From Spirochaetia bacterium (lineage in GTDB: Bacteria > Spirochaetota > Spirochaetia > SZUA-6 > Bin103): a DNA stretch of 64,000 bases. Positions 1 through 46,489 of the stretch are shown here, piece by piece. The stretch spans positions 1,152,001 to 1,216,000 of the forward strand of contig CBDBOV010000006.1 in NCBI GenBank assembly GCA_965208575.1, in the 5' to 3' direction. The stretch's first letter is position 1, and each line of letters starts with the position of its first letter. The notes beneath the pieces are model-generated. The model had not been told where the DNA came from. It made no database searches and saw nothing but the letters and a program-made list of their open reading frames with translations. The position numbers and the translations under genes are program-made.

Positions 1-3000
1 CTGCGCGATCACCTGGTTCGCCGCCACCGCGCTCCCGCTCAGCGCCAGCGCGCCGTGCCCGGCGTCCGGCAGGCTCGCCACCCGCACCGCCTTCAGGCTG
101 TCGCCATCCGCGTCCGTGAACACCCCCGCGAAGTCGCTCGCCGCGAACGCCAGCGCCGTGTCCTCCGCCGTGCTCACGTTCAGCGCTCCCGCCGCCGGCG
201 CGTCGGCCACCGCCGTCACCGTGATCGTGGCCGTCGCCGCAGCCGACTCCGCGTCGCTCGGGTCCACCGCCTTGAACGTGAAGCTCGCATCCCCGTTCCA
301 GTCCGCCGCCGGCGTGAACGCCAGCGACCCCAGGTCGGCCTGCGCGACCACCTGGTTCGCCGCCACCGCGCTCCCGCTCAGCGCCAGCGCGCCGTGCGCC
401 GCCGCCGGCAGGCTCACCACCATCACTGCCTTCAGGCTGCCGCCGTCCGGGTCCGTGAACACCCCCGCGAAGTCGCTCGCCGCGAACCTCAGCGCCGTGT
501 CCTCCGCCGTGCTCACGTTCAGCGCTCCCGCCACCGGCGCGTCGGCCACCGCCGTCACCGTGATCGTGGCCGTGGCCGACGCCGACTCCGCGTCGCTTTG
601 GTCCACCACCTTGAACGTGAAGCTCGCATCCCCGTTCCAGTCCGCCACCGGCGTGAACACCAGCGACCCCAGGCCGGCCGGCGCGATCACCTGGTTCGCC
701 GTCACCGCGCTCCCGCTCAGCGCCAGCGCGCCGTGCCCGGCGTCCGGCAGGCTCGCCACCATCACTGCCTTCAGGCTGTCGCCATCCGGGTCGGTGAACA
801 CCCCTTCGAAGTCGCTCGCCGCGAACCTCAGCGCCGTGTCCTCCGCCGTGCTCACGTTCAGCGCTCCCGCCACCGGCGCGTCGGCCACCGCCGTCACCGT
901 GATCGTGGCCGTGGCCGACGCCGACTCCGCGTCGCTTTGGTCCACCACCTTGAACGTGAAGCTCGCATCCCCGTTCCAGTCCGCCGCCGGCGCGAACGCC
1001 AGCGACCCCAGGTCGGCCTGCGCGACCACCTGGTTCGCCGTCACCGCGCTCCCGCTCAGCGCCAGCGCGCCGTGCCCGGCGTCCGGCAGGCTTGCCACCC
1101 GCACCGCCTTCAGGCTGTCCCCGGTGTCCGCGTCCGTGAACACCGAGGCGAAGTCGCCCGCCGTGAACGCCAGCGCCGTGTCCTCCGCCGTGCTCCTGGC
1201 GAACGTCCCGGCCGCCGGCGCGTCGTTCACGGCGCTCACCGTGACCGTCGCCGTCGCGTTCGCCGACTCCGCGTCGGTCCGGTCCACCACCTTGAAGTCG
1301 AACGTCGCCGCACCGCTCCAGTTCGCCACCGGCGTGAAGGTCAGGTCGCCCAGGTCGGCGTGGTCGATCTTCCGATTCGCCGTCACCGCGGTTCCGGCCA
1401 GCGCCAGCGTCCCGTGCCCGGCGTCCGGCAGGCTCACCACCTGCACCTGCTTCAGGCGGTCGCCATCGGGGTCGCTGAACACGTCTTCGAAGTGCGCCGC
1501 CGTGAACGCCAGCACCGTGTCCTCCGCGGTGCTCACCGCCAGGGCCGCCGCGGCCGGCGGGTCGGCCACCGCGGTCACCGCGATGGTGGCCGTGGCCGTG
1601 GCCGACGCCGTGCCGCTCTGGTCCAGCACCTGGAACTCGAACGCGGCTGCGCCGGCGAAGTGCGCCGCCGGCGTGAACGTCAGCGCCGCCAGCTCGCCCC
1701 GCGCGAGCACCTGGTTGACCGTGACCGGGCGGCTCTGCCGGGCAACCGGGCGGTCGCCACCCGATTCGCCGTCACCGGGCTTCCGTTCGGCGTTGACGGC
1801 CGCGACCAGCGCCAGCTCGCCGTGCGCCGCGCGCGGCAGGCTCACCACCTTGATCGATTTCAGGCTGTCACCCGCGTCCACGTCGCTGAACACCGCCGTG
1901 AAGTCCGCCGCGGCGAACGCCAGCGCCGTGTCCTCGGCCGTACTCTTGTTCAGCGGCGCCGCGGCCGGCGGGTCGGCCACCGCCGTCACCGTCACGGTCG
2001 CGGTCGCCGCGGCGGCCGATTCCGTGCCCGCCTTGTCCACCACCCGGAACGTGAAGCTGACATCCCCGTGCCAGTTCACCGCCGGCGTGAACGTCAGGCT
2101 TCCCAGGTCGGCGCGCACGATCTTCCGGTTCGCAGTCACGGCGGTCCCGTCCAGCGCCAGCTCGCCGCCCGCCGCGGCCGGCAGGCTCACCACCCGCACC
2201 GCGGCCAGGCCGTCGTCGGGGTCCGGGTCGGAGAACCCTCCGTCGAAGTCCGCCGCCGTGAACGTCAGGGGCCGATCCTCCGCCGTGCTCACGTTCAGCG
2301 CGCTCGCCGCCGGCGCGTCTCCCACCCCGGTCACCGTGATCGTCGCCGTGGCCGCGGCCGACACCGCGTCCGTCTGGTCCACCACCCGGAACGTGAAGCT
2401 CGCGGCTCCGTTCCAGTCCTGCACCGGCGTGAACCGCAACGCGCCCAAGTCGGCGAGCGCGATCACCTCGTTGACCGTCACCGCCCGGGTCGGTGCGGCG
2501 ACCGGCCCGACGCCGCCCTCGCCGGGCTTCGGGTCGGCGTCACCGGGCTGCTGCTGTTGCAGCGCCAGCGTGCCGTGCCCGGCGTCCGGCAGGCTGTCCA
2601 CCCTCACGGCCTTCAGGCGGTCGCCGTCGCCGTCGCTGAACCGGTCCTTGAACTCCGCCGCCGTGAACGCCCGGACCGTGTCCTCCGCCATGCTCACCGC
2701 CAGCGCTCCCGCCACCGGCGCGTCGGCCACCGACGTCACCGTGACCTGCGCCGCCGCCGCGGCCGACTCCCGGTCCGACTGGTCCACCACCTTGAACGTG
2801 AAGCTCGCCTGCCCGTGCCAGTTCGCCACCGGCGTGAACACCAGATCTGCCAGATCGTCGTGCGTGATCAGGTCGTTCGCACTCACCGCTTTGCCATCGA
2901 GCGCCAGCACGCCCGCCGTGCCGGCCGGCAGCGTGACCACGCGCACCGCCTTCAGGCTGTCGTCCGGGTCGACGTCGCTGAACACGCCATCGAAGTCCGC

Positions 3001-5110
3001 CCCGGTGAACTCCAGCGCCGTGTCCTCCGGGGTGCTCACCGCCAGCACTCCCGCCACCGGCGCGTCGGCCGCCGCGGTCACGGTCACCGTCGCGGTCGCC
3101 GCCGCCGACTGCGCGCTCTCCCGATCGCGCACCCGGAACTCGAACTTGGTTTCGCCGTTCCAGTCGGCCACCGGCGTGAACACGAGCCCGACCAGGCGCG
3201 TCCGGTCGATCACCTGGCCGGCGGCGACCGCCTCCCCGTCCAGGGTCAGCGCCCCCTGCGCCGCCGGCGGCAGCACGGCGACGACCACCGCCGTGAGGCG
3301 GTCGCCGGCCTCCGCATCGGCGAACACGCCGTCGAAGTCGGCCGGCGCCAGCGGCAGCGGCGCATCCTCGCGGGTAGTGCGCGCCAGCGGCTGCGCGGTC
3401 GGCGGCGTATTCCACCACAGCGCGAGCGTGTAGGCTTTCGCCGACGCCGCCTTGGCGAGGTCCTGCACCCGGTAGTCGATGCTCGCGCGGTAGATGCCGT
3501 CCGTCGGCCGGAACTCCAGATCGCTCAGCTCGGCCGCTGCGATCACCGCCCCGACCGGCTGCGCCTTGTCGGCCCGCCACAGGCCCCCGCTGCTCGGTTT
3601 CCCGGCGAGCACCATCGCGCGCAGGCGGTCGCCGGGATCGGGATCCGCGAACGCCGCCTCGAACAGGTCCTGGAAGTCCAGGCCCGGCACCCACTTGCGC
3701 GTGAGGTCCTCCGCCGTCGGAGCGTCGTTCTTGCCGGCGACCGCGATGGTCGCGGCGTAGGCAGCCGCCGACCGGGCATCCGACTGGTCGACCACGCGGA
3801 AGGTGAACCGCGCGTTCCCGAACCAGTCCGCCACCGGCGTGAACGTCACGCTGCCCAGGTCGGCCGCGGCGATCACGCCGCCTGCTTTGACCGCGTCCCC
3901 CTTGGCCGCCAGAGCGCCGTGCTTGGCGTCCGGCGGGGTCACCACCACTACCGCCTTCAGGCTGTCGCCGGGGTCGGGATCGCGGAACACGAAGTTGTCC
4001 GCCGCCACGGTCACGGTCACATCTTCGTCGCCGGCGACCGTGAACGCCGCCGACGCCGGCGGGTCGGCGACCGGTGCGACCTGGACCGTGCCGGTGGCGA
4101 CTTCCGAGACGTAGCCGGCCTGGTCCTCCACCTGGAAGGTGAACGTCACCTCGCCCGCGAAGTCGCGGTCCGGCTGGTACACCAGGCGCGTCAGCCCCGC
4201 CGCCGGCAGCAGGTCGTCGCCGTCCATCACTCTCGCCACGCTGCCGTGGAAGCTGGTCAGCGTGCCTGCCGATTGCGGCGGTGTGCCGGACCGCGGGGCA
4301 CGCCTGATGACGATCGACTTGAGCCGGTCATCCGCGTCGACGTCGTCGAACGTGAAGTCGGCGAGCGTGAGCGTGAGCGTCGTGTCCTCGTCCATCGAGT
4401 GGCCGAGGTCCGCCGTCTCCGGCGCGTCGTTGACCGCCGTCACCCGGACCGTCGCGGTGCTGGAAGCCAGCGAAGCGGCGCCGGACGAGTCCTCCACCCC
4501 GAACAGGAACGTCGCCGTCCCGTTCCAGTTCGCCGCCGGCGTGAACCGGAGCTTGCCGTCGATGGAGCCGCTCGGGGCGGCAATCGTCTGCCCGGCGGTC
4601 ACCGCCGTCCCGTCCAGCGTCAGCGTGCCCGCCGCCGCGGCCGGCAGCGAGGCGATGACCACGGCCTTGCGCGTGTGCCCGTCCAGGTCGGAGAACGCGA
4701 AGTCGGCGGATGTCAGCGTCAGCGCGGTGTCCTCGGCCACCGTGCGCGCGAAGTCCGCCGTCGTGGGCGCGTCGTCCACCGGCCTGACCGTGACCGTGGC
4801 GGCGTACGCCTGCGTCGAGGCGCGCAGCGTGGTGTCCAGCACCTTGAACGTGAACGAGGTGATCCCGTACCAGTCCGCCGTCGGCCGGTACTGGAGCGCG
4901 CTCAGGTCGGCACGCGCGATCGTGGCCCCGGCGGACTGCTCCGCGCCGTTCAGCAGCAGCGTGCCGTGCGCCGGCAGGGTTTCGATGCGCAACTGGTGGA
5001 GCTGCTCGTCCGGATCCGCGTCGCTGAACGTGAACTGCCCGGCGGCGAACGTGTGCGACGTGTCCTCGTCGATCGTCACGCTGAGCGGCGCCGAGGTCGG
5101 CGCGTTGGCA
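1..5110 (-). repeat. Tandem ~339-bp (113-aa) cadherin-like domain repeats within the giant gene
   Basis: Anchor cagc(g/a)ccgtg recurs at 151, 490, 829, 1171, 1510 (spacing 339, 339, 342, 339) and more divergently up to ~5060. Confidence 0.9.
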
Positions 5111-8100
5111 CCCACCTCGGCGTCGGTGATGGTGACGTTGAACCCACTCACGGCTAAGAGGCCGGGGCTAGCTGTAGCCGTGTAGGTCATGGCGGTGGCG
5201 GCGGCCACCGTGGTCGGCGTGCCCGACAGCGTGCGCGTCGCCGCGTCGAAGGTCAGGCCCGGCACCGCCGGCGTCAGGGTGTACGTCAACGTGTGGCGGT
5301 AGTGCGCCTCCGGCAGGACCAGCGGGATGATCGCCTTGCCTTTGGGCCAGCTCTGGTCCGGGAACGACGCGCCCCGGAAGGTCGGCGGGGGTTTGGCATC
5401 GCACCCTGATCCTTCCGGCGCCACGTTGTAGACCCGGAGCGGAATGTCGAGAGACGCCTTCAATCCCCGCGGGTCGGTGGCCGTCACCGTGATGGTGACA
5501 TTCCAGTTCTCGCCGGCGGCTGGACCAGGGTCGACTGTGAGGTGCGGAGCCCGCTCGACGTCGTACACATTCAGTGCTGGGGACGTAACATGGTTCAACC
5601 GAAAACGCCGAAGCGGCGAAACGTAGACGTGGGCGGCCACGCGCGAGTCCGAACTGTGCACGCTGTACGTCAAGGGATCGGCGTCGGGGTCGTAGAAGTA
5701 GTAAGCCATCGGATACCTGCGAAGGCTACGTCCGCACCTGCCAATCGCTCCGTGGTCCCTCAAGTCACCATACACCTTGGCGTAACCCTTCAACAAGCCT
5801 TGATCGCGGTCAGCCTTGGAGTTTGCCACCGGCGCGCGGTTTGCCGGCAGGCCGGTGATGCGGAAATCCTGCGCCGTCCGCGCGCCGCTCGTGTCGACGG
5901 CGAAGATGCGGATCGGCTTGGCTCCCTCGGTGATGGGAAAGAGGCAGTGTGCGTAGCGGTAGCCGGTACATCGGGCGAGCGTCAATCCCGTGTGAACTTC
6001 AGTCGCCACGAAGTTCAGGACATCGCCGTCGGCGTCGTAGAAGTAGCCGCGCAGGTCGACGCCGTACGGGTACGTGCTGGATTTTCCCCACTTCGATCCC
6101 GGGATCTTGACGCTCACGTCCACGGTCTTGCCGGCGAACAGGGCGACCGGGGGGCTGTTCGCCACCACGTTGATCGTGAAGCTCAGGGTGGCGCTGTCGC
6201 CGGCGCTGGCGTCGGCATCCGAGTCGACCGCCCGATAGGTCATGGCGTAGCTGCCGGCGGTGGTCGGCGTGCCCGTGATCCGGTGGGTGCGCGCGTCGAA
6301 GCTCAGGCCCGGCACCGCCGGCGTCAGGGTGTAGGTCAGGTCGCCGTCGCCGCCGGTCGCGGTCGGCAGCGGCGGCAGGGGCCGCGCCGAGGTCACCGGA
6401 CCGTAGTCCCGCCCGGTAAGGAGGCGCAGATTCCGGATCGAGACGCCGGCGGCAAACCGTGGCGTCGACGCGGCGGCGGCGCGCAGCGAGACCCTGATCG
6501 TGTCGGCGTCGCTGTCCCGGTCGGTGACCTTGTAGAGGAAGTTCCAGGTGCCGGCGGCCTTGGGCGTAAAGGTGACCGTGCGCGTGGCCGCGCTGAAGGA
6601 CATCACGCCGGCAGCGGCCGGCGTGAGGGTGTAGGTCAGGGTACCGTCGCCGCCGGTCGCCGCCGGCAGCACGCGCGAGAGGGTCTGGCCCGCCTGCAGG
6701 CCGAGCGAGATGTTCCGAGTCAGGCCCAGGCTCGGGCGGCTCGCGGGGTAGCGTATCTTGACCGGGAGGTAGGTGGTGCCGGTCAGTCCCCCGCGGTCGG
6801 TGACCGTCAGCTTGTACAGCAGGTCGACGGGATAGCTCGGTTCGGGCCACAGATACGGGGTGCTCGAATCGGGCCACCGTGGTTGGTGGTGCCGCGTGAC
6901 CGGATCCCGGACCTGGGTCCACCGGAACCTGAGATGATCCAGTGGCGTTTCCTCGTCGGTGCTTGCCCGTCCATCGAGATAGAGGTTCGTCTGAATGAGC
7001 TTCCCGTGTTCGTTGTACCTCTTCCGGTAACCCCACGTGGCGCGCGCGACGGGCGCGTTCTTGTTGGGCGCGGCCGCCAGCGACACGGTCACGGTGCGCG
7101 CGGCGCCGTCGCCGCCGGCGGTGCGCGCGCGCACCGCGAACGTGTAGGTGGCGCCGTTCCGCAGTCCGGACACCACCTGGCGGTACACGTGCGCCCCGGC
7201 GCCGCCCTGACTCCACGCCGACCACTTGGTGCCGCCGTCGGAGCTGTAGCGGTACCACCAGCTCGCGATCGGGGCTCCGTTCGCCGCGCCCGCCGTCCAC
7301 CTGAGCGTGACCGTGCCGTCGCCGCTGCCTGCCGTGAGCGTGGCCGGCGCGGCCGGCGGCCGTACGACGTCCAGCGACGCCGTGGCGGTGGCGCTCGCGC
7401 CGTGCTCGTCGGTGGCGGTCAACCGGAAGGTCAGCCGCTCCACGCGGTTCGGCGCGGTGAAGGTCGGGCTCTCCGCGGTGGCGTCGCTCAGCGTCACCGC
7501 GGTGCCGGCGGTCTGCTCCCAGTGCCAGGTCATCGTGTCGCCGTCCGTGTCGCGGCTGCTGTTGGTCAGCGTCACCGTGTGGCCGGCCTTGACGGTGCCG
7601 TACGGCGCGGTCGAGGCGGCGGCCAGCGGCGGATCGTTGGCGTGCACGGTGATGGTCGCCGTACCCTGCGCACTCGCGCCCGGCTGGTCGATCAGGTTGA
7701 ACACGAAGGAGTCGGTGCCGGAGTAGTCAACCTTGGGCGTGAACACCAGCGTGTCCAGGTCGTGCGGCTCGACCAACCGCAAGGAGGTCACCGCCGCCCC
7801 GCCGAGCGTCAGCCGGCCGCCGTTCAGCGGCGGCGCGATGACCACCCGCGACAGGCTGTCGCCGGCGTCCGGGTCCGAGAACGCGCCGGTGAAGTCGCTC
7901 GTTGCGAAGGTCACGGGCATGTCCTCGTAGGTGCTCTTGGCGATCGGCGCCGCGGTCGGCGCGCTGTTGGCGTTGACGGTGAGCGTGAACGTCAGCGTGT
8001 CGGCATCGGCGTCGGTGTCGAAGCGGTCGCCGTCGTCGACCCGGTAGGTCATCTGGTGCTGCCCCGGGGATGCGGCCGTGCCGGACAGCACGCGCGTCTT

Positions 8101-9303
8101 CGGGTCGAAGGTCAGGCCGGTCACCGACGGGCTGAGGCGGTAGGTCAGGCCGTAGTTGCCGCCGGTCGCCGCCGGCAGGGTCAGCGAGGGGGCGCCCGGC
8201 ACGCTCGCCACCCGCGTCTGCGCCGGCACGGTGGCCGTGCCGAAGGTGGGCGCCGAGTTCAGGAACGGCGTGTCGCCGCCGCTCGCCGCCGGCCCCCGGT
8301 AGAAGCCGTTGGACGCGGTCAGGGTCACCGTGTAGGCGCGCTCGTTGGTCAGATTGGGGATGGTGTGGGCGCGGGCGGTCGCGGCCAGGTCCGTGCTGCC
8401 GGAGGCGCCCGCGCCGGACCAGGCCAGCCGGTAGCCGGTCACCGGCGCGCCGCCGGCGCCGGCCGGCGCCGCCCAGCTCACCGCCAGCGAGCGGTCGTTG
8501 CCCAGCACCTGCAGGGTGCGCGGCGCGGTCGGGGCGCCGTAGGGCGTCGCGGAGGTCACCTCGGTCACCGTGAACGTGGCCTCGGTGCCGGGGTCGAGAC
8601 GGTAGAGCGTGTCGACCTCGATCCGGTACTTCCGGCCGGCGGTGAGGCCGGTGATGTCGTAGGAGGTGGCGGTCCTCGCCAACCGCGCCGTGCCGGCGCG
8701 CGGGGCGCTGCCCTCGGCCCAGGACACCACGTAGTAATGGAGGATCTTGGACCCGGTGGGCCGGCTCCAGGTGACCCGCAGGGTGTTGGCGGCCCCGCGC
8801 ACGGCGGACAGGTTGACCACCTCCATGTCGGCGCGCGGGGTCGGGATGTTGATGTAGGCGTCGTCGCGCGGGCTGGTGTACGGCAGGTTGGCCAGCGCCG
8901 CGCCGGTCCCGGACCGGAACGGCCCCTCGCCGACGGCGTTCACCGCGGTCACGCCGACCCCGTACTCGATGCCGTTGGTCAGCCCGGTCACGAAGTGGAC
9001 GTGCACGCCGGTGCCGGACGCCGCCACGTCCGCCGACTGCACGGTGCCGGCGTACTTGCCGGTCTGGTACCAGTACACGCGGTAGGTGGTGACCGCGCTG
9101 CCGCCGTCGCTGGCCGGTGGGCGCCAGCTCACCTCCAGCTTCCCCGGATGGGAGACCACCCACTTGCGCTGATACTGATGGTCACCCGGGGCATAGCGGT
9201 CGTTGTGCCGCGTGCCGAAGCCCACCTGCCCCGGCGCCGTCGGCTCGCTCGGGGTCTGCGCATGAGCGGCGGCGACGGCGAGCCAGGCGACCAGCGCCAG
9301 CAT
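1..9303 (-). CDS. Giant secreted repeat protein / adhesin (FN3, putative Ig, PKD-like and ~15 cadherin-like Ig repeats); 3' end lies beyond the window start
   Basis: Manual translation: ATG at 9303 gives signal peptide MLALVAWLAVAAAHA-Q, then FN3 (LEVSWRPPASDGGSAVTTYRVYW), putative-Ig motifs (LTFDAATRTLSGTPT) and ~339-bp cadherin-like repeats. Same frame at base 1; no stops in the lower-GC patches I checked. Absent from the ORF track because no stop lies in the window. Alternative in-frame ATG at 9486. Confidence 0.9.
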   Translation of the reverse strand, partial: MLALVAWLAVAAAHAQTPSEPTAPGQVGFGTRHNDRYAPGDHQYQRKWVVSHPGKLEVSWRPPASDGGSAVTTYRVYWYQTGKYAGTVQSADVAASGTGVHVHFVTGLTNGIEYGVGVTAVNAVGEGPFRSGTGAALANLPYTSPRDDAYINIPTPRADMEVVNLSAVRGAANTLRVTWSRPTGSKILHYYVVSWAEGSAPRAGTARLARTATSYDITGLTAGRKYRIEVDTLYRLDPGTEATFTVTEVTSATPYGAPTAPRTLQVLGNDRSLAVSWAAPAGAGGAPVTGYRLAWSGAGASGSTDLAATARAHTIPNLTNERAYTVTLTASNGFYRGPAASGGDTPFLNSAPTFGTATVPAQTRVASVPGAPSLTLPAATGGNYGLTYRLSPSVTGLTFDPKTRVLSGTAASPGQHQMTYRVDDGDRFDTDADADTLTFTLTVNANSAPTAAPIAKSTYEDMPVTFATSDFTGAFSDPDAGDSLSRVVIAPPLNGGRLTLGGAAVTSLRLVEPHDLDTLVFTPKVDYSGTDSFVFNLIDQPGASAQGTATITVHANDPPLAAASTAPYGTVKAGHTVTLTNSSRDTDGDTMTWHWEQTAGTAVTLSDATAESPTFTAPNRVERLTFRLTATDEHGASATATASLDVVRPPAAPATLTAGSGDGTVTLRWTAGAANGAPIASWWYRYSSDGGTKWSAWSQGGAGAHVYRQVVSGLRNGATYTFAVRARTAGGDGAARTVTVSLAAAPNKNAPVARATWGYRKRYNEHGKLIQTNLYLDGRASTDEETPLDHLRFRWTQVRDPVTRHHQPRWPDSSTPYLWPEPSYPVDLLYKLTVTDRGGLTGTTYLPVKIRYPASRPSLGLTRNISLGLQAGQTLSRVLPAATGGDGTLTYTLTPAAAGVMSFSAATRTVTFTPKAAGTWNFLYKVTDRDSDADTIRVSLRAAAASTPRFAAGVSIRNLRLLTGRDYGPVTSARPLPPLPTATGGDGDLTYTLTPAVPGLSFDARTHRITGTPTTAGSYAMTYRAVDSDADASAGDSATLSFTINVVANSPPVALFAGKTVDVSVKIPGSKWGKSSTYPYGVDLRGYFYDADGDVLNFVATEVHTGLTLARCTGYRYAHCLFPITEGAKPIRIFAVDTSGARTAQDFRITGLPANRAPVANSKADRDQGLLKGYAKVYGDLRDHGAIGRCGRSLRRYPMAYYFYDPDADPLTYSVHSSDSRVAAHVYVSPLRRFRLNHVTSPALNVYDVERAPHLTVDPGPAAGENWNVTITVTATDPRGLKASLDIPLRVYNVAPEGSGCDAKPPPTFRGASFPDQSWPKGKAIIPLVLPEAHYRHTLTYTLTPAVPGLTFDAATRTLSGTPTTVAAATAMTYTATASPGLLAVSGFNVTITDAEVGANAPTSAPLSVTIDEDTSHTFAAGQFTFSDADPDEQLHQLRIETLPAHGTLLLNGAEQSAGATIARADLSALQYRPTADWYGITSFTFKVLDTTLRASTQAYAATVTVRPVDDAPTTADFARTVAEDTALTLTSADFAFSDLDGHTRKAVVIASLPAAAAGTLTLDGTAVTAGQTIAAPSGSIDGKLRFTPAANWNGTATFLFGVEDSSGAASLASSTATVRVTAVNDAPETADLGHSMDEDTTLTLTLADFTFDDVDADDRLKSIVIRRAPRSGTPPQSAGTLTSFHGSVARVMDGDDLLPAAGLTRLVYQPDRDFAGEVTFTFQVEDQAGYVSEVATGTVQVAPVADPPASAAFTVAGDEDVTVTVAADNFVFRDPDPGDSLKAVVVVTPPDAKHGALAAKGDAVKAGGVIAAADLGSVTFTPVADWFGNARFTFRVVDQSDARSAAAYAATIAVAGKNDAPTAEDLTRKWVPGLDFQDLFEAAFADPDPGDRLRAMVLAGKPSSGGLWRADKAQPVGAVIAAAELSDLEFRPTDGIYRASIDYRVQDLAKAASAKAYTLALWWNTPPTAQPLARTTREDAPLPLAPADFDGVFADAEAGDRLTAVVVAVLPPAAQGALTLDGEAVAAGQVIDRTRLVGLVFTPVADWNGETKFEFRVRDRESAQSAAATATVTVTAAADAPVAGVLAVSTPEDTALEFTGADFDGVFSDVDPDDSLKAVRVVTLPAGTAGVLALDGKAVSANDLITHDDLADLVFTPVANWHGQASFTFKVVDQSDRESAAAAAQVTVTSVADAPVAGALAVSMAEDTVRAFTAAEFKDRFSDGDGDRLKAVRVDSLPDAGHGTLALQQQQPGDADPKPGEGGVGPVAAPTRAVTVNEVIALADLGALRFTPVQDWNGAASFTFRVVDQTDAVSAAATATITVTGVGDAPAASALNVSTAEDRPLTFTAADFDGGFSDPDPDDGLAAVRVVSLPAAAGGELALDGTAVTANRKIVRADLGSLTFTPAVNWHGDVSFTFRVVDKAGTESAAAATATVTVTAVADPPAAAPLNKSTAEDTALAFAAADFTAVFSDVDAGDSLKSIKVVSLPRAAHGELALVAAVNAERKPGDGESGGDRPVARQSRPVTVNQVLARGELAALTFTPAAHFAGAAAFEFQVLDQSGTASATATATIAVTAVADPPAAAALAVSTAEDTVLAFTAAHFEDVFSDPDGDRLKQVQVVSLPDAGHGTLALAGTAVTANRKIDHADLGDLTFTPVANWSGAATFDFKVVDRTDAESANATATVTVSAVNDAPAAGTFARSTAEDTALAFTAGDFASVFTDADTGDSLKAVRVASLPDAGHGALALSGSAVTANQVVAQADLGSLAFAPAADWNGDASFTFKVVDQSDAESASATATITVTAVADAPVAGALNVSTAEDTALRFAASDFEGVFTDPDGDSLKAVMVASLPDAGHGALALSGSAVTANQVIAPAGLGSLVFTPVADWNGDASFTFKVVDQSDAESASATATITVTAVADAPVAGALNVSTAEDTALRFAASDFAGVFTDPDGGSLKAVMVVSLPAAAHGALALSGSAVAANQVVAQADLGSLAFTPAADWNGDASFTFKAVDPSDAESAAATATITVTAVADAPAAGALNVSTAEDTALAFAASDFAGVFTDADGDSLKAVRVASLPDAGHGALALSGSAVAANQVIAQ

Positions 9304-9500
9304 GCCGGCGCGCGCACACGTACCGGCGGCGCGCGACCGTACCTGCCGCCGCCGGCGGGCGGGTGACGAAATTCGCCCGCCGCGGCAAAGCCGGTGACGA
9401 GCGTTGTTCTTCGGCGCGTGCCCGCTCTGTTGTCGGTCAGCAGGCCGCGGCGCTCGTGCGCGCGGCGCCGCGGCGTCCGGCTCCATCACTCCGGGCTATA

Positions 9501-9516
9501 TGCAAAAACCGGGCCA
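9501..9516 (-). promoter_or_regulatory. sigma54 -24/-12 promoter for the giant adhesin gene
   Basis: Minus strand TGGCCCGGTTTTTGCA: GG-N10-GC spacing, matches TGGCACG-N4-TTGCW with one mismatch. Confidence 0.8.
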
Positions 9517-9534
9517 GGCTTCTGCCAATCAGGT

Positions 9535-9560
9535 CAACTTGTTTTTCAGAAAAGAATTAG
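9535..9560. promoter_or_regulatory. AT-rich IHF-like bending site between sigma54 promoter and enhancer
   Basis: caacttgtttttcagaaaagaattag, AT-rich in a GC-rich context; positioned like the tract at 11922-11947. Confidence 0.4.
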
Positions 9561-9687
9561 AGTGACCTTGAGCCGTTCTCTCCGGGCCGCGGACGAGTGG
9601 CGCATCTCGCCACTCAAGCCCGGCCCATGCCGGTCTGGTGCGAATAACTCGTGGCGGGTGAGTTGGTTATGAGCAGGGGCCACGAGC

Positions 9688-9723
9688 TGTCGCGATGTGC
9701 GTCACGAGACGCAATCTGCAACA
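9688..9723. promoter_or_regulatory. Tandem putative EBP-binding sites (UAS)
   Basis: TGTCGCGATGTGCGTCA (9688-9704) and AGACGCAATCTGCAACA (9707-9723), consensus TGWCGCA-N3-TGCGWCA, 172 bp upstream of the -24 element. Confidence 0.55.
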
Positions 9724-9814
9724 GTCAGGCGGCGACGGCGGGCCGGGCTGCGAACCGACGCATCCGGCGGCGACCGCGACGCGGACTCGGCTCGCCGGGG
9801 CGAGCGGATCCGAT

Positions 9815-11836
<2,022 letters not shown>

Positions 11837-11888
11837 TCGCTGTCCTCCCGCGTCATTGCTCGGTGGTTCGACTCCCCGCGCACAATCG

Positions 11889-11904
11889 AGCAACAGCCGT
11901 GCCA
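11889..11904 (-). promoter_or_regulatory. sigma54 -24/-12 promoter for EBP copy 1
   Basis: Minus strand TGGCACGGCTGTTGCT, perfect consensus, ~50 bp upstream of the GTG start. Confidence 0.88.
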
Positions 11905-11982
11905 ACTACCGCGACGCCTCGCAAAGTGCTGACGGGCAGGAAATTAAGACGGTTCGAGCGGTGCCGGCGCGGTCGCGGCGAG

Positions 11983-12112
11983 CGACGCATCATGCGACTC
12001 GCGCCTCCCGTCCGGCCCGGCGGCAACCAGCTATTTCATTACCCATACAAGAGTTGCGAACACGGTCACGGGCTCTTGTCGCAGTCTGCGCCAGGCGGCG
12101 CAAAGCGCGCCA
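11983..12112. promoter_or_regulatory. Putative EBP-binding sites (single site plus tandem pair)
   Basis: CGACGCATCATGCGACT (11983-11999), TGTCGCAGTCTGCGCCA (12077-12093), CGGCGCAAAGCGCGCCA (12096-12112); the pair is 173 bp upstream of the -24 element. Confidence 0.55.
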
Positions 12113-12287
12113 CGCGCGCGCGGGCGACCGACCGCCGAGCGCCGGCCGGATCGCGCGGCGACCGGGCTTCCACGCGCCGGACCCGCCGTCTCGACCGGCG
12201 GCGCAGCGTGGACCGGCGTGGACCGGCGGCGCGGCGCTTGCCGTTGCCCGCGCGCGGCGGGTATGCTCGGGCGGCGCGCTTCGCCCC

Positions 12288-14669
12288 ATGGCTACCGGCA
12301 ACGACATTCCGCCATCCGTGCGCATGCCCGGTAGAGGGCGGCCGTCGCCTGGCGCCCACGCGGATCCGCCCGTGCCGGGCGCCCGGCCGCCGGTGCACGC
12401 GGCGCCCGGGCCGCGCATCCTGATCGCGGCCGAAGATGCCGAGATTGCCCGCCTCGAGGCGCTGCTCATCGAGTTCGGCTGCGTGGTGACGGCCGCGGCG
12501 CGCTCGGGCCGCGAGGCGCTGGCCGCGCTGCAGGCGCGCGCCGACGGCGACCCGCCGCCCGCCGAACTGGCGTTGATCGATCCGGCGCTCGGCGGCGAGG
12601 TTTCGGGCGTTGCCGCCGCCCGCCGGCTGCGCCGCTTCGGCATCCCGGTGATCTACGTCACCGACGGCGACCTGCCGGCGCGCACCGCCCGCGCCGCCCG
12701 CGCCGCCGAACCGGCCGCCTACGTGCCGCGCCCGGTGGCGCCGTGGCACCTGCGTGCGACCATCGACACCGCCCTGGCGCAGCACCGCCGCGAAACCAAG
12801 CTGGCCGAGCGTGCGCGCCTGCTCGCCCGCGAACGCGGTGCGCTCCGGCGGCGCGTCACGACGCTCCAGGATCGGAGCGCGCACACCGAGGCCGAGTTGC
12901 GCGACCAGGTGGAGGCATTCAGGAGCCAGTCCACGCTGCTGCGCGCGGTGGTGGACAGCATGGGCGATGGACTGATCGTGGCCGACCGCGAAGGCAGGTA
13001 CCTGCTCACCAATCCGGAGATGGAGCGCCTGGTCGGCATGTACCGGCCCGGCGCCGACCTGTCGCGGCGGTCGCAGACCTACGGCCTGTACTATCCCGAC
13101 GGGAAGACCCTGATTCCCTCGGAGCGGCTGCCGCTGACGCGCGCCCTGAGCCACGGCGAGTCGACGGACAACTTCGACGTGTTGATCCGCAATGCCGGAC
13201 ACCCGAACGGGATCCGGGTGAGCATCAACGGGCGGCCGCTGTACGACGCGGACGGCGCCTTGCAGGGTGGCGTGATCGTGTTCCGCGACGTGACCCGCAT
13301 CAGGGAAACGGAGCGCGAGGTGGTAGAGTCCGCGCACCGCATGGCGGAGCAGAGCCGCGCCATGCAGACCGTGGTCGACAGCATCAGCGACGGCGTGGTG
13401 GCCGCCGATACGGCCGGCAGGCTCACCCTGTTCAACCCGAGCGCGGAACGCATTCTGGGTCTGGGAAAGATCGATACGCCGCCCGAGCGCCGGGCCGAAC
13501 GGTACGGCGTCTACTACCCTGATGGGGCGACGCCGGTGGCGGCGGACGATCTGCCGCTGACGCGCGCCACGCGCGGCGAGTCTTCGGACGGCGAGGAGTT
13601 CTTCGTACGCAATCCGCGCGTTCCGGACGGCGTCTTCGTCAGCGTCAGCGGCCGGCCGCTGCGCGACGGCGCCGGCGCGCTGGTCGGCGGCGTGGTGGTG
13701 TTGCGCGACGTGACCGAGCAGGTCCGGGCGCACCAGACGCTGATGCAGGCGTTCGCGCAGGGGCGGCTGGAAGTGGTCGACACCATCGTCCACAACATCG
13801 GCAACGCGATCAACAGCGTGGCGATCGGCGTCGGTACCATCCAGCACGAGTTGGAACGGAACCGCGAACTGCGCCGCTTCCAGGCGCTCGCGCACGCTCT
13901 CGAGCAGCACCGCGACGACTGGCTCGCATACCTGCGGACCGATCCGCAGGGGCGGCAGGTGGTGCCGTTCATCCTCGCGCTCGCCACCGACTTCGAGGCC
14001 CGCAATCGGCGCTTGACCGACACGGTGGAGCGCGTGCGCGGCCGCGTCGCGCACATCGTCGACCTGATCAGAACGCAGAAGTCGTTCGACCGCCAGAGCA
14101 TGACGAGCAAGCTGATCGACCTGCGCCAGTCGATCGTCGATGCGACCAAGGTCCTGGCCGAGTCGTGCGCGGTGCGCGGCATCGACGTGGAGATCGACTG
14201 CGCGCACGCTCCCCGTGAATTGTGGATCCAGGAGAACAGGTTCCACCAGATGCTCGTCAACCTGATGAAGAACGCCATCGAAGCGATCGACGCGCTGTCC
14301 GCGGCCGGCCGCGGCGCGGCGGGGCGCGACCGGCCCCGCATCCGCATCGCCTGCTACCCGCGGGACGAATTCCTGGTGATCGACGTGATCGACAACGGGA
14401 TCGGCATGGGCGAACAGCGCCACCGGCTGATCTTTACCGCCGGCTACACCACCAAGGAGAGCGGCAGCGGACTCGGGCTGCACTCGGCGGCCAACTTCGT
14501 GATCGGCTCCGGCGGCCGCATCCAGGCAATGAGCGACGGCCACGGGACGGGAACCACGATCCGGGTAATGCTGCGCCGGACGGCGCCGTCCGCACGGCGG
14601 GCCGCGGCGAAACAGGCCGCGGCTTCCGCGCCGACAGGCCACTGGTTGGCGCCCTCGTCCTCCGGTTGA
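12288..14669 (+). CDS. Cytoplasmic sensor histidine kinase (REC-like, coiled coil, 2x PAS, HisKA, HATPase)
   Basis: H-box IVHNIGNAINSV, N-box QMLVNLMKNA, DNGIG, GYTTK, GSGLGL; two PAS repeats (VVDSMGDG / VVDSISDG); no TM segment; start uncertain. Confidence 0.88.
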   Translation: MATGNDIPPSVRMPGRGRPSPGAHADPPVPGARPPVHAAPGPRILIAAEDAEIARLEALLIEFGCVVTAAARSGREALAALQARADGDPPPAELALIDPALGGEVSGVAAARRLRRFGIPVIYVTDGDLPARTARAARAAEPAAYVPRPVAPWHLRATIDTALAQHRRETKLAERARLLARERGALRRRVTTLQDRSAHTEAELRDQVEAFRSQSTLLRAVVDSMGDGLIVADREGRYLLTNPEMERLVGMYRPGADLSRRSQTYGLYYPDGKTLIPSERLPLTRALSHGESTDNFDVLIRNAGHPNGIRVSINGRPLYDADGALQGGVIVFRDVTRIRETEREVVESAHRMAEQSRAMQTVVDSISDGVVAADTAGRLTLFNPSAERILGLGKIDTPPERRAERYGVYYPDGATPVAADDLPLTRATRGESSDGEEFFVRNPRVPDGVFVSVSGRPLRDGAGALVGGVVVLRDVTEQVRAHQTLMQAFAQGRLEVVDTIVHNIGNAINSVAIGVGTIQHELERNRELRRFQALAHALEQHRDDWLAYLRTDPQGRQVVPFILALATDFEARNRRLTDTVERVRGRVAHIVDLIRTQKSFDRQSMTSKLIDLRQSIVDATKVLAESCAVRGIDVEIDCAHAPRELWIQENRFHQMLVNLMKNAIEAIDALSAAGRGAAGRDRPRIRIACYPRDEFLVIDVIDNGIGMGEQRHRLIFTAGYTTKESGSGLGLHSAANFVIGSGGRIQAMSDGHGTGTTIRVMLRRTAPSARRAAAKQAAASAPTGHWLAPSSSG

Positions 14670-14678
14670 CCCGCCGAT

Positions 14679-16661
<1,983 letters not shown>

Positions 16662-16811
16662 ATGATAATCATTCCGGCAACGGTTTTCGTCGCAAGAAGG
16701 GGTGATAACACCAAAGAACTACTTATTTCATTCTATAAGTGATGCGATGTTTACTATTATGCTTCCGGGTCCACCGTCGGGTACGCGGGCAGCGCAGCGC
16801 TCAGGCGCGGG

Positions 16812-17834
16812 TCAGGCCATCCGGGCGCGCCGCAGACCCTCCCGAAACCCGACCATCTGCCGGCTGGTCTCGTCGTAGAGCCGCATCGACAGGCAGCGCA
16901 GCGTACCGCGGATGCGCAGCATCGGCACGGCGTGCAGGGCCGGCTGCTCACGGTGGGCGCGCTCGAGATGGTAATTGGGAATGGTCGGGTCGAGGTGGTG
17001 GACATGGTGAAAGCCGATGTTGCCGGTGAACCACTGCAGCACGCGCGGCAGCGCCAGGTAGGAGGAGCCGTGCAACGCGGCGCTGACGAAGTCCCAGCGC
17101 TCGTTGCGGCGCCAGTAGACGCCTTCAAACTGGTGCTGAACGTAGAACAGCCACGTGCCCACCGCCGAGGCGAGCACGAACACGGGGGTGAACACCACCA
17201 GGAAGTTGACGAAGCCGAACGGCAGCGACATCGCCACCACGAACAGGCCGGTGCCCACGTTGGTCCAGATGATGGCGCGCAGCGAACGGGCGCCCACCCG
17301 CTTGCGCGGAAAGCGGTGGTTCAACAGGAACCCGACCGGCGCGACGAGAAAGAACAGCACGAACGGATTGCGGAACACCCGGTACGCCAACCGCAGCCGG
17401 CGCGGCGCGGCGACGAACTCGCGTACGGTCATGGTCCACACGTCGCCGAGGTCGCGGCGGTCGAGGTCGCCGGCGGTGGCGTGGTGGCGGGCATGTTCGT
17501 GCGACCAGTGCCGGAACGGCGTAAAGGTCAGGAACCCGGCGAGGTAGCCGATCACGCGATTCCAGCGGCTGCGGCGGAACAGCGACCCGTGGCCGGCGTC
17601 GTGAAAGATGATGAACACGCGAATCAAAAACCCGGCCGTGGGCAGGGCGAGGAGCAGACTGAGCAGGTAGGAAACCTGCGCCAGCGCCCCCATGAGGATC
17701 AGTCCGCCGACGTAGGGAACGAACGACGTGACGATCTGGCCGATGCTGCGACCGGCGGACGGGGTACGGTATTGCCTGAGCGCGCGCTGCAGTGCGCGGG
17801 ACTCGATCGACGGAGTATTCGCTCCTTGACTCAC
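16812..17834 (-). CDS. Membrane fatty acid desaturase (Bacillus Des-like)
   Basis: Three His boxes HDAGH, HARHH, HHVHH; YVQHQFE motif; TM segments. Confidence 0.9.
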   Translation of the reverse strand: MSQGANTPSIESRALQRALRQYRTPSAGRSIGQIVTSFVPYVGGLILMGALAQVSYLLSLLLALPTAGFLIRVFIIFHDAGHGSLFRRSRWNRVIGYLAGFLTFTPFRHWSHEHARHHATAGDLDRRDLGDVWTMTVREFVAAPRRLRLAYRVFRNPFVLFFLVAPVGFLLNHRFPRKRVGARSLRAIIWTNVGTGLFVVAMSLPFGFVNFLVVFTPVFVLASAVGTWLFYVQHQFEGVYWRRNERWDFVSAALHGSSYLALPRVLQWFTGNIGFHHVHHLDPTIPNYHLERAHREQPALHAVPMLRIRGTLRCLSMRLYDETSRQMVGFREGLRRARMA

Positions 17835-21309: not shown

Positions 21310-22209
21310 ATGCAACCCGGCGTTAGCGAGGTGCCGCCGCCTGCCGGTCCGCCGCTGTTGTTCGTGCACGGCTTCCTGGGAGAGGCGGCGGACTGGGACG
21401 CGCTGCGCGCGCTGCTTGGCACGGACGTTGCCGCCGCCTGCTTCGAGCTTCCGGGGCACGGCGCGGCGCCGCCGGTCATCGGGGCTGCCTCGGAGCGGTC
21501 CGCGGAGGCGGCGCACCGACTCCGGCGGCCGCCTGCCGGCCTGGCGGAACCGATGGCAGCCGCGGGCTGGTTTCCGGCCGCGGCGCGGCGGCTGGAGCGG
21601 GCGTGCGCCCGGTTGCCGGCGCCGCCGGTGCTGGTCGGCTACTCCATGGGCGGGCGTCTGGCCCTGTATGCGGCGGTGCGCCGCCCGGGCGTCGCCCGCG
21701 CGCTGGTGCTGCTCGGCGCCGACCCCGGCATCGCCGAACCCGCGGCGCGTGCCGAACGCCGCGCCCGCGACGACGCGCTGGCGCGCGAGTTGGCCGCGGC
21801 CGCTAACGAGCAGGCGTTCGCGGCGTGGCTGCGGCGCTGGTACGCGGCGCCGCTGTTCGGCCGCCTGAACCGCCACCCGGCGTTCGAGTCACTGCTGCGG
21901 CGCCGGCTGCGGCAACGCCCGGGGACGCTGGCGGCGGCGCTGCGCGGGCTGTCCGTGTCCCGCCAACCGGCGCTGTGGAACGCGCTGCAGGCGCTGCCGG
22001 TCCCGGCGCTGTTCATCGCCGGCGCCGAGGATGCCAGGTACCGCGCCGTGGCCGCCCGCATCGCCGCGCTCGGCCCGCCGCGGCAGGCCGCCGTGTGCCC
22101 CGGCGCCGCCCATGCGGTGCACGTCGAGCAGCCCGAGGCGCTCGCCGGCCTGCTCCGCTCGTTCGCGCGGTCCGTCGCGGCGGGCGCCGTGGACCCGCCG
22201 GTGGACTGA
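21310..22209 (+). CDS. menH: SHCHC synthase (alpha/beta hydrolase)
   Basis: [24 protein letters not shown]...[11 protein letters not shown]; adjacent to menB. Confidence 0.8.
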
Positions 22210-40883: not shown

Positions 40884-41198
40884 AGCCGTGGACCGAAAGT
40901 GAGATGCATGAGGCAGTACGGTGACTCCGTGATATGGAAGACGATGAAAACCGATGCCCGAGCATCGCCGACCCACAGGAATTTCGGACCAGACAGCGTG
41001 CCGTCCCGGCAGATCGTGAGCACGGAAAAAATCGCGAAAAAACTGCGCACACCCCTTGACGCGATTTTCGGGGCTCATGGTGGCTCGCTACGGCCCGCGG
41101 CGGTCCCTCCGACTGCCCCGGAACGACTTGGCCTCCGTTGCCGCGACAGCGCCCCGTGGCGCGGCCTTCCGGGCGCCGTTTCGGCGCAGTCCAGGGCT
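40884..41198. mobile_element. Possible ~315-bp MITE / IS remnant
   Basis: Ends AGCCGTGGAC and GTCCAGGGCT form a 9/10 inverted repeat; interior is lower in GC; sits where the 5' part of the HNH gene is expected; no target duplication seen. Confidence 0.3.
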
Positions 41199-42776
41199 CG
41201 GAAAAAGCTGCAGGACGGCTCGCTGAACCTGAGCAACGCGGCGCAACTGCAGAACCTGTTCGAGCGCAACGACCGCAGCCGGGGCCGCCCGCCGGTAAGT
41301 ACCGGAGCAGGTGGCGCCGTGGGCGGTGCGCCGCCGAGTGACGGCGCACCGGGCGAGCCGGGACCGGCGGCGCCGGCGCACGGCGGCGAGCACGATCCGG
41401 CGCCACCGGCAGCCGGGCCGGTGCTGGACGCGGCGGCGCGGGAGAAGCTGGTCCGGCAGGCGGCGGGCAAGAGCACGCGCGAAGTGCAGCAGATGCTGGC
41501 CGAGGTGGACCCGGAGTTGGCGCAGCCGAGCGACCGGTTGCGCGCGCTCGGAGGCGGGCGCTGGGAGTTGAAGGCGGCGGTCGACGCGGAGTGCCGGCAT
41601 GGGCTGGAGAAGCTGCTGATGCTGCTGTCGCACACGGATCCGCACCTGACGCTGGGCGGGCTGGTGGCGCGGCTGGTGCGCGACGGCCTGGACCGCTACG
41701 ACCCGGCGCGGCCGCCGCGTGTGCGGCGTACGGGCGGTGGCGGCTCGGTCGACGGCGCAGGATCCGCGAGCACGCCGGCGCTACCGGTCAGCGGTGAGCT
41801 CAACGGTTCGCCGGCGAATCGCCACGCCGAGGCCGAACTCGGTCGGGCGTCGCGTGCGGTGACGCAGGACGGCGACGGTGGGGCGGTGTCGGCGGCGAAA
41901 CAGCGTGCGGAGGACGCGTGCGGCGGCGCGAAGTCGGCGGCTGCGAATGACCTGCCCGGTCCCTCGGCCCCGAAGCGGCCTGCGGAAGTCGAGCATGGCG
42001 AAACGAACTCCACGGCGGTGCGGGATATTGTCCGCTGCTCCGATTCGGCGCCGAAGGAGTCCGCGCCGGTGGGGGACAGAGAGGGGCACACCACTTCGCT
42101 GGCGAAGCGCCACTCGGTCACCGGGCACGGCAGCGCGTCACGGGCGGCGGCGCCGCACAGCGGTGCGCACACCACTTCGCCAGCGAAGTGCCGATCCGAA
42201 GCCCAACCCGGGCGCAGGCCGCACGCGGTGGCACGGAACGGCACCGGTCCGGCGGTTCCGGCGGCGAAGCGGGACACGGAGGCCGAGCGCGGCGGTTCGA
42301 AGTCCGCGCCGGTGCGGGACACGGTCCGGCGCTCGGAGTCGGCGGCGAAGCGGCTTGCGTACGCCGCCGGGCATGGCGCGGTGGGGCCGGCGGTGCGTTC
42401 GCCGGCAGTGGAGCGGCACCTTGCCGCGTTGCGCAGCCTCGGCGCGGTGCCGGGCTCCCGGTCGCGGTACATCCCGGTAGCGGTGAAGCGGGAGGTGTGG
42501 CGCCGCGACCAGGGTTGTTGCACCTATGTCGACCGCCGCAGCGGGCGGCGCTGCGGCTCCCGCTATCGGCTGGAGATCGACCACATCGTGCCGTTCGCGC
42601 TCGGCGGCGGCGCGGAGCCGCGGAATCTGACGCTCCATTGTCGAGCGCACCACAGGTTGCGCCACGCTCAGCGCCATGCTCACGCCGAGAGTGTGCCGAA
42701 TGAAGCCCGGCGCGCTCCGGTCTCCGCGGTCGATCCGAACGAACACGGGCGGACCGTCGGATCGCATGCGGTGTAA
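41199..42776 (+). pseudogene. HNH endonuclease (DUF222-like), probably 5'-truncated
   Basis: IPVAVKREVWRRDQGCCTY...C...LEIDHIVPFALGG...NL..HCRAHH; family-like sequence begins abruptly at ~41200; open frame extends back to 40899 through unrelated sequence. Confidence 0.65.
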
Positions 42777-46222: not shown

Positions 46223-46489
46223 GCACGCCAACAGACGATCGCCGCGGGCGAGTTCAAGCAGAAGTGCCTGGCCCTCATCGACGAGGTCGCCGCCACCGGC
46301 GCCCCGATCATCATCAGCAAGTATGGCAAACCGGTTGCCCGGCTGATGCCGCTTGAGACTCCCGAACAGGCCGAGGGCCGGATCCTCGCGGCGCTTCGCT
46401 CCGGTGAAGGGGGCATGCTCGTCGACGAGGAAACATTCCTGGCTCCCTCATCGGAGGTCGCCGGCTGGTCCTCCGACGCGGCAACGTGA
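46217..46489 (+). CDS. Phd/YefM family antitoxin
   Basis: IAAGEFKQKCLALIDEV...IISKYGKPVARL. Confidence 0.9.
   Translation: MDARQQTIAAGEFKQKCLALIDEVAATGAPIIISKYGKPVARLMPLETPEQAEGRILAALRSGEGGMLVDEETFLAPSSEVAGWSSDAAT

Follow-up and report, generated by a model that had tools for sequence, protein, structure and literature searches.

Candidate feed-forward control of a giant adhesin gene by paired sigma-54 activators in an uncultured spirochaete

Results

Organization of the locus

We analyzed a 64,000-nucleotide stretch of DNA from a Spirochaetia bacterium (GenBank assembly GCA_965208575.1, contig CBDBOV010000006.1, positions 1,152,001 to 1,216,000), referred to throughout as the window, in which a giant adhesin gene lies close to genes for two paralogous activators of the sigma-54 class (enhancer-binding proteins [EBPs], here EBP1 and EBP2) and for a sensor kinase. 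Because the window is ~70% GC, open reading frames (ORFs) were picked by their Pfam matches together with third-position GC. The adhesin and both activators are encoded on the minus strand; the kinase gene lies on the plus strand, between EBP1 and EBP2. The four genes are as follows.

1 to 9303, running off the left window edge, minus strand: giant surface protein gene, ATG at 9303, with putative Sec-type signal peptide and repeats
9815 to 11836, minus strand: EBP1, 673 residues, receiver (REC)-PAS-AAA+ (GAFTGA)-helix-turn-helix (HTH), GTG start 6 nt after GGGAGGA
12288 to 14669, plus strand: soluble sensor kinase, with a receiver-like domain, two PAS domains, a dimerization and histidine phosphotransfer (DHp) domain with conserved His, and a HATPase domain
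14679 to 16649, minus strand: EBP2, 656 residues, with EBP1-like architecture and a 14-residue N-terminal tail common to EBP2-type orthologues

Two activators with a common DNA-binding helix

Both activators belong to the NtrC class of EBPs, each having an AAA+ sigma-54 interaction domain (PF00158 Sigma54_activat, 231 bits in each copy) and a C-terminal Fis-type HTH (PF02954 HTH_8, 56 and 52 bits). AAA_lid_14 and PAS domains were also detected by Pfam in both, as was a response-regulator receiver (PF00072 Response_reg, 32.9 and 32.4 bits; cutoff 30.2). Walker A, Walker B, and an intact GAFTGA loop are present in each copy, and both receivers carry the acidic pocket, Asp, Thr, and Lys (DD, the D of IDIRMP, the T of LMTAY, and the K of RKPF; assigned by eye). 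The nearest solved structures are ZraR, FleQ, and NtrC1, and neither protein reached an NCBIfam equivalog cutoff. The N terminus of EBP1 agrees with those of its orthologues.

The two proteins are identical at 576 of 671 aligned residues (86%), distributed as a mosaic. Across the AAA+ part (EBP1 residues ~317 to 570, ~750 nt), the copies share 99 to 100% nucleotide identity, with one synonymous and one nonsynonymous codon difference over ~250 codons; the receiver domain is 85 to 99% identical, and the PAS core is 67% identical in DNA. The duplicated DNA runs from approximately the third codon of EBP1 to a few bases past the stop codon, and the promoters were therefore excluded from it. When relatives were compared over the PAS region, two groups separated (Shimodaira-Hasegawa-like approximate likelihood ratio test [SH-aLRT] for the split, 98), an EBP1 type (P0004, P0005, P0010, and P0011) and an EBP2 type (P0002, P0006 to P0009, P0012, and P0019). 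In the AAA+ tree, unlike the PAS tree, the two window copies are sisters. This disagreement places the duplication before these relatives, with the AAA+ part homogenized later by gene conversion, and the mosaic identity indicates the signature of such conversion between direct repeats 4.8 kb apart. An assembly artifact is an unlikely source of the duplication, since the copies have different PAS parts with separate orthologues; assembly could have contributed to the perfect AAA+ identity.

The recognition helix NVTRAA.ALGI(N/S)RATLHRKL runs through both paralogue groups, and therefore both copies should bind the same sites. Mixed rings of EBP1 and EBP2 would be sterically trivial because their AAA+ domains are virtually identical. 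As two EBPs at one locus with shared DNA-binding determinants, EBP1 and EBP2 are a candidate co-acting paralogous pair.

Sigma-54 promoter-like sites before the adhesin and EBP1 genes

Sites were scored against the sigma-54 consensus TGGCAC-N5-TTGCW. The two best intergenic sites are the following.

9501 to 9516, minus strand: sigma-54 promoter-like site TGGCCCGGTTTTTGCA before the adhesin gene, TGGCCC-N5-TTGCA, 1 mismatch (10 of 11 specified bases)
11889 to 11904, minus strand: sigma-54 promoter-like site TGGCACGGCTGTTGCT before EBP1, 0 mismatches to the consensus

Both are oriented along the strand of the gene that they directly precede, with the GG of the -24 element and the GC of the -12 element ten bases apart, as in a sigma-54 promoter. 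The adhesin site has GG at -25/-24 and GC at -13/-12, for a predicted transcription start at ~9490. The EBP1 site lies 53 nt before the start codon; transcription from it is predicted to start at ~11878 and to yield a leader of ~42 nt that terminates in the ribosome-binding site GGGAGGA. Perfect matches to the consensus numbered 1 in the window compared to 0.03 expected (reached in 3 of 100 shuffles), and this match is the EBP1 site. With up to 1 mismatch allowed, there were 3 matches compared to 1.47 expected (16 of 100 shuffles reach at least 3), and with up to 2 mismatches, 21 compared to 25.6 (82 of 100 shuffles reach that number).

A third near-consensus site, TGGCACGGACGTTGCC at 21417 to 21432 on the plus strand, falls within an alpha/beta-hydrolase ORF (21310 to 22209) and is probably a chance match.

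Upstream of EBP2 (16650 to 16811), we found no sigma-54 match with up to 2 mismatches and no GG-N10-GC on the minus strand. The region holds an AT-rich tract and borders the next gene on the same strand.

16700 to 16765, minus strand: AT-rich tract before EBP2, 33% GC, without a sigma-54 motif and with weak sigma-70-like matches only
16812 to 17834, minus strand: fatty-acid desaturase gene, directly upstream of EBP2

At 30% GC, 16701 to 16760 has the lowest 60-nt value in the 64 kb. A sigma-70-type promoter scan of 9300 to 17200 returned no promoter-like site, and with relaxed settings the sequence before EBP2 yielded nothing better than 8-of-12 matches. EBP2 could be transcribed by read-through from the desaturase gene. 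Within the 5' end of EBP2, GGGCACGGCAACGGCG was considered as a relic sigma-54 motif and was ruled out, as it encodes the conserved N-terminal tail of EBP2-type orthologues.

A preliminary description of this DNA, made from its letters and ORF translations, had placed two minus-strand sigma-54 motifs at the adhesin and EBP1 sites and none before EBP2, naming an AT-rich tract there instead. Our scoring reproduced this arrangement, with 1 and 0 mismatches at the two sites and, before EBP2, no match within 2 mismatches and the lowest-GC 60 nt of the window. Its further claims of a duplicated EBP and of a giant adhesin of more than 9 kb likewise stand: the activators share their architecture as well as 86% of residues, and the giant gene, with its tandem-95, cadherin, and fn3 repeats, exceeds 9.3 kb and is still open at the window edge. 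The activators are not, however, a simple recent duplicate but two older PAS-sensor lineages with a homogenized AAA+ part.

Colinear blocks upstream of the two sites

Alignment of the sequences upstream of the two sigma-54 motifs revealed three colinear blocks (A, B, and C before the adhesin gene and A', B', and C' before EBP1).

9517 to 9565, minus strand: block C, AT-rich tract (39% GC) with TAATT at 9555 to 9559, the TAATT ~43 bp upstream of the adhesin -24 element
9594 to 9615, minus strand: block B, inverted repeat (GAGTGGCG-N5-CGCCACTC), ~88 bp upstream of the adhesin -24 element; candidate activator site
9698 to 9713, no strand assigned: block A, palindrome TGCGTC-N4-GACGCA, center 189.5 bp upstream of the adhesin -24 element; candidate activator site
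11942 to 11946, minus strand: block C', TAATT, about 40 to 42 bp upstream of the EBP1 -24 element
11979 to 12000, minus strand: block B', counterpart of block B in the alignment, ~85 bp before the EBP1 -24 element
12087 to 12102, no strand assigned: block A', palindrome TGCGCC-N4-GGCGCA, center 190.5 bp before the EBP1 -24 element and at a distance of ~190 bp from the kinase ATG

The palindromes follow the pattern TGCGNC-N4-GNCGCA, succeeded by GCGACA. Local alignment of the two promoter regions scored 25, compared to 15.6 ± 2.3 for dinucleotide shuffles, with 1 of 500 shuffles reaching 25. Among 1,288 overlapping real windows of equal size, 5 reached this score, 2 of them being the EBP1 upstream region itself. 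The region upstream of EBP2 is unlike both promoter regions, its alignment scores being equaled by 177 and 136 of 500 shuffles. There is thus moderate evidence that the adhesin and EBP1 promoters would be served by one activator. Because their upstream regions are similar, the recognition helix is the same, and GAFTGA is intact, co-regulation of the adhesin and EBP1 genes by the EBPs is plausible, and with it feedback or feed-forward control. For EBP1 itself, positive feedback is a plausible consequence of these features.

A soluble kinase between the activators

The kinase gene encodes a two-component histidine kinase by its DHp phospho-His and its catalytic and ATP-binding (CA) boxes. The DHp His stands in the motif RV.H(I/V)VD..RTQ and is kept by all 25 aligned homologues; NLMKNAIEA, DNGIG, and GSGLGLH form the N, G1, and G2 boxes. 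HATPase_c (61.6 bits) and two PAS domains were detected in the protein, Pfam HisKA was undetected, and the DHp-CA part aligns to FixL. The Asp of the N-terminal receiver-like domain (12288 to 12800) is conserved in the 17 close homologues, and more distant homologues have a multispan membrane domain in place of this domain. The source protein model for the kinase is 28 residues shorter at the N terminus, which would put its start at ~12372.

The intergenic, presumably regulatory, region between the divergent EBP1 and kinase genes is 451 bp and contains block A'. At its other end, the kinase gene converges with EBP2, the two stop codons being separated by 9 bp (14670 to 14678) without a terminator-like hairpin, so that transcription from each side would run antisense into the opposite gene. 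A terminator scan of 9300 to 17200 returned a single terminator-like site, inside the kinase gene. Being on the opposite strand, divergent from EBP1 and convergent on EBP2, the kinase gene is in an operon with neither activator, and the locus is not an autoregulated operon in which a kinase and an EBP are co-transcribed from an EBP-dependent sigma-54 promoter. The preliminary description had put a cytoplasmic kinase between the EBP copies and had it prime the system together with copy 2. The position is correct, and no convincing membrane-span-like hydrophobic segment was found in the protein; what had gone unnoted is the plus strand, and EBP2 and the kinase gene, being on opposite strands, form no transcription unit.

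One weak site was found ahead of the kinase gene.

12227 to 12242, plus strand: weak sigma-54-like site before the kinase gene, CGGCGC-N5-TTGCC, 8 of 11 specified bases, ending 45 nt before the ATG

A sigma-54 promoter for the kinase was ruled out, since this was the only site found and 8-of-11 sites are at chance level, at 0.7 per strand-kb. Just before it, a direct tandem repeat (CGTGGACCGG in two copies) occupies 12208 to 12229 on the plus strand.

The giant adhesin gene and its leader

The adhesin gene belongs with the tandem-95/cadherin-like giant surface proteins, which carry many ~95-residue repeats. It encodes 4 fn3 domains, one PKD-like domain, He_PIG, and 13 to 14 tandem-95/cadherin-like repeats; NF012211 (tandem-95) scored 495 bits over 14 stretches, and each of the Pfam repeat families Cadherin_5, Big_9, and Cadherin_4 matched 13 stretches. 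A hydrophobic signal-like segment ending in AHA-Q is common to the N termini of this protein, P0244, P0245, and P0247. Export and anchoring could be checked on the N-terminal side, the C terminus lying outside the window and the orthologue sequences being truncated.

Translation most likely starts at ATG 9303. The closest orthologue, P0244, begins at the equivalent Met, and GC by codon position is 0.66/0.55/0.95 in the first 200 codons after 9303 compared to 0.81/0.74/0.76 in the 186 nt upstream. An N-terminal extension from GTG 9489 or ATG 9486, which would have meant a leaderless mRNA, was ruled out on both grounds, as the added stretch lacks the codon-position GC bias and P0244 starts at the 9303-equivalent Met. 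The sequence between the predicted transcription start and this codon would therefore be a leader.

9304 to 9490, minus strand: predicted adhesin 5' leader of ~187 nt, from the predicted start at ~9490 to ATG 9303, GC-rich and without a coding signature

The P0247 gene model translates a similar stretch in frame, as an N-terminal extension, and from this likeness the leader may be conserved as DNA. Rfam searches of the leader and of 9200 to 17000 identified no known RNA or riboswitch (the sole match was to a chance eukaryotic family; E = 0.4), and the fold z-score of the leader (-2.24) is unremarkable.

Linkage of activators and kinase in relatives

As a proxy for linkage, we looked by eye for contigs of equal size among the lists of homologues, using the best 120 matches per list. 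The relatives carry the source label of Spirochaetaceae metagenome-assembled genomes. Activator and kinase homologues had at least 23 contig sizes in common by this proxy, 17 of them no larger than 45 kb, and one relative contig (size 32,428) appears to bear an EBP1-type, an EBP2-type, and a kinase homologue together. Linkage of activator and kinase therefore looks conserved, supporting their assignment as a cognate pair. A search of genome contigs with the kinase returned 52 loci with no orthologue among them; all are distant kinases, 23 to 36% identical within the C-terminal part.

Other features of the window

A repeat within EBP1 sets its linker apart from that of EBP2.

10018 to 10143, minus strand: 21-nt (7-residue) tandem repeat, 5 to 6 copies, in the AAA+-to-HTH linker of EBP1

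It encodes a Pro/Glu/Arg-rich heptad; EBP2 has no such run, and linker length varies among relatives. Beyond the desaturase gene lies a divergent ABC transporter, and the remainder of the window consists of metabolic and housekeeping genes. Amid the metabolic genes are a PIN-domain gene (46486 to 46872, plus strand) and a large HNH nuclease-motif ORF (40899 to 42776, plus strand), both unrelated to the locus described here.

Discussion

The sequence features at this locus can be drawn together as a sigma-54 two-component module that would control the neighboring gene for a giant, putatively exported adhesin through a feed-forward loop with positive feedback, a proposal to which we give about an even chance. 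In this circuit, transcripts of EBP2 would originate at a non-sigma-54 promoter within the AT-rich tract or come from the desaturase gene by read-through, and the kinase would phosphorylate the receiver domains of both EBPs. Active EBP2 would bind the shared blocks (~-190 and ~-87 relative to the -24 element) and open the adhesin and EBP1 sigma-54 promoters. EBP1, by itself or joined with EBP2 in mixed hexamers, would then occupy these sites and raise the expression of the adhesin and of EBP1 alike, and the differing PAS domains would let a second cue gate EBP1, the amplifier copy. A switch-like or bistable adhesin output is possible, although the sequence speaks neither for nor against it.

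Several observations weigh against this circuit. No rpoN gene was found among the ORFs of the 64-kb window. Sigma-54-like motifs are not enriched across the window overall; what counts as evidence is how good the two best sites are and where they lie. Of the five real windows that matched the promoter alignment score, the remaining three are one unrelated locus (38.6 to 39.2 kb) whose alignment to the adhesin upstream region is as good as that of the EBP1 region. For the palindrome pattern, 3 occurrences in the window compare to 0.82 expected, with 2 of the 3 at 189.5 and 190.5 bp from the -24 elements, but the pattern was defined only after being seen. The scan of 9300 to 17200 placed no terminator-like site between EBP1 and the adhesin gene, so read-through could also feed the adhesin. 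The kinase is co-transcribed with neither activator, and its receiver-like domain has Arg at the position usually held by Lys (relatives have Lys, Asn, Thr, or Leu there). More weakly, none of the 4 full orthologues of the adhesin N-terminal part (P0244 to P0247) is on a contig whose size recurs in the activator or kinase lists, in a search that covered proteins of 1576 to 4500 residues, missed the window's own protein, and had imperfect contig bookkeeping. In the same search, one partial tandem-95 match (P0252) shared its contig size (26,458) with P0017.

The feed-forward circuit must be set against other arrangements of the same parts. One is a linear cascade without self-activation, in which EBP2, or EBP2 with the kinase, activates EBP1 and EBP1 alone activates the adhesin; in that case the promoter regions would be alike through shared ancestry or through the use of overlapping but nonidentical sites. 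A sigma-54 promoter-like site before EBP1 and not before EBP2 is what such a cascade would have, the first HTH helix differs slightly between the window copies (ALGIS versus ALSIN), and EBP cascades are documented (PMC9765219). We nevertheless consider a cascade unlikely, since among the relatives the two paralogue groups do not differ in the recognition helix, and an EBP1 with the same AAA+ domain and helix as EBP2 could hardly be excluded from its own promoter, which carries the blocks of the adhesin promoter. Another arrangement makes the activators two parallel sensors combined by OR or AND logic, possibly in mixed hexamers but with no designed amplifier, the EBP1 promoter being a graded autoregulation of the ancestral copy. 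The divergence of the PAS core (67% compared to 99 to 100% DNA identity in AAA+) and the presence of separate orthologues for each PAS type both suit parallel sensing, as do the precedents of co-acting paralogues in RedR1/RedR2 (PMC10084136) and HrpR/HrpS (PMC3105312). This arrangement seems improbable to us as a separate account; graded and switch-like control are indistinguishable in sequence, and it overlaps the feed-forward circuit, from which it differs mainly in emphasis. A further reading, quite unlikely in our judgment, is a split sensor, in which gene conversion would keep the AAA+ domains identical for mixed hexamers on shared enhancer sites while the PAS domains and N-terminal tails read different cues. 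With a sigma-54 promoter of its own before only one copy, the pair would be an amplified gate with two inputs that commits the cell to production of the very large adhesin.

The motifs might instead be nonfunctional as sigma-54 promoters, with adhesin transcripts arising at a different promoter or by read-through and the targets of the module lying elsewhere in the genome. The lack of overall motif enrichment and of rpoN among the window ORFs would fit, as would the unconfirmed linkage of adhesin and module in relatives; the EBP FleQ regulates the lapA promoter of Pseudomonas putida, which is nonetheless independent of sigma-54 (PMC5026340). We see only a slim prospect of this, given that a perfect consensus, expected 0.03 times per window, stands 53 nt before a start codon with a strong ribosome-binding site and that the second-best site precedes the neighboring giant gene with matching upstream blocks.

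If the feed-forward circuit holds, the locus would provide a compact natural circuit made of one kinase and two sensor copies, one constitutive and the other auto-amplified, through which an uncultured lineage of high GC controls a costly surface structure. It would also be a clean case of gene conversion and sensor divergence together shaping paralogous AAA+ activators. Because its individual ingredients are all known, its value would be as an example and not as a new principle. Self-activated sigma-54 two-component systems and paired paralogous activators have already been described. To the preliminary description, the present analysis adds the colinear upstream blocks, for which the evidence is moderate, an old duplication with an apparently gene-converted AAA+ part, and the co-occurrence of activator and kinase homologues. 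In the limited literature searched, no tandem-95 adhesin was described as directly driven by an autoregulated pair of paralogous EBPs.

Among spirochaetes, a parallel is Hk2/Rrp2-RpoN-RpoS of Borrelia, in which an EBP response regulator with an adjoining soluble PAS kinase ultimately controls surface proteins. There, the sigma-54 promoter drives rpoS and not the surface genes directly, and a single EBP, not known to contain a PAS domain, is involved. NtrB/NtrC is an autoregulated sigma-54 two-component system. Autoregulation is also mentioned for ZraR (PMC12316311) and was described for Nla28S/Nla28 of Myxococcus xanthus, where EBP cascades exist as well (PMC9765219). Nla28 is a response-regulator EBP with a partner kinase, its own gene stands behind a sigma-54 promoter through which it raises its own level, and it binds repeated half-sites upstream of several sigma-54 promoters (PMC9765219), much as EBP1 would in the proposed circuit. 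In systems of the Nla28S, NtrBC, and ZraSR type, however, the kinase and the EBP share one operon, whereas here the kinase gene is divergent, there are two paralogous EBPs with only one behind a sigma-54 promoter-like site, and a PAS domain lies between the receiver and AAA+ domains.

HrpR and HrpS of Pseudomonas syringae, which are not known to have an N-terminal sensor domain, are tandem and strictly co-dependent; here, in contrast, the kinase gene separates the pair, and each copy has a receiver and a PAS domain. HrpR/HrpS are described as a co-evolved paralogous EBP pair acting jointly at a sigma-54 promoter (PMC3105312). VnfA and AnfA are a further pair of paralogous EBPs. RedR1 and RedR2 of Aromatoleum anaerobium are almost identical EBPs with three sigma-54 promoters in common and a preference for hetero-oligomers (PMC10084136). 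Like EBP1 and EBP2, they are encoded at one locus and differ in the N-terminal tail and sensor part, and they act on common sigma-54 promoters, as EBP1 and EBP2 would; unlike them, they have GAF-PAS sensors without a receiver, one is membrane-sequestered, the target is a catabolic pathway, and the abstract reports no feedback promoter (PMC10084136). As to the target, FleQ of P. putida is an EBP-family regulator that controls a giant repeat adhesin, LapA, from a promoter independent of sigma-54 (PMC5026340). The adhesin gene studied here, in contrast, is directly preceded by a -24/-12 motif. If that motif is functional, a direct sigma-54 promoter on a giant adhesin gene would join the known sigma-54 regulon, unlike that of lapA.

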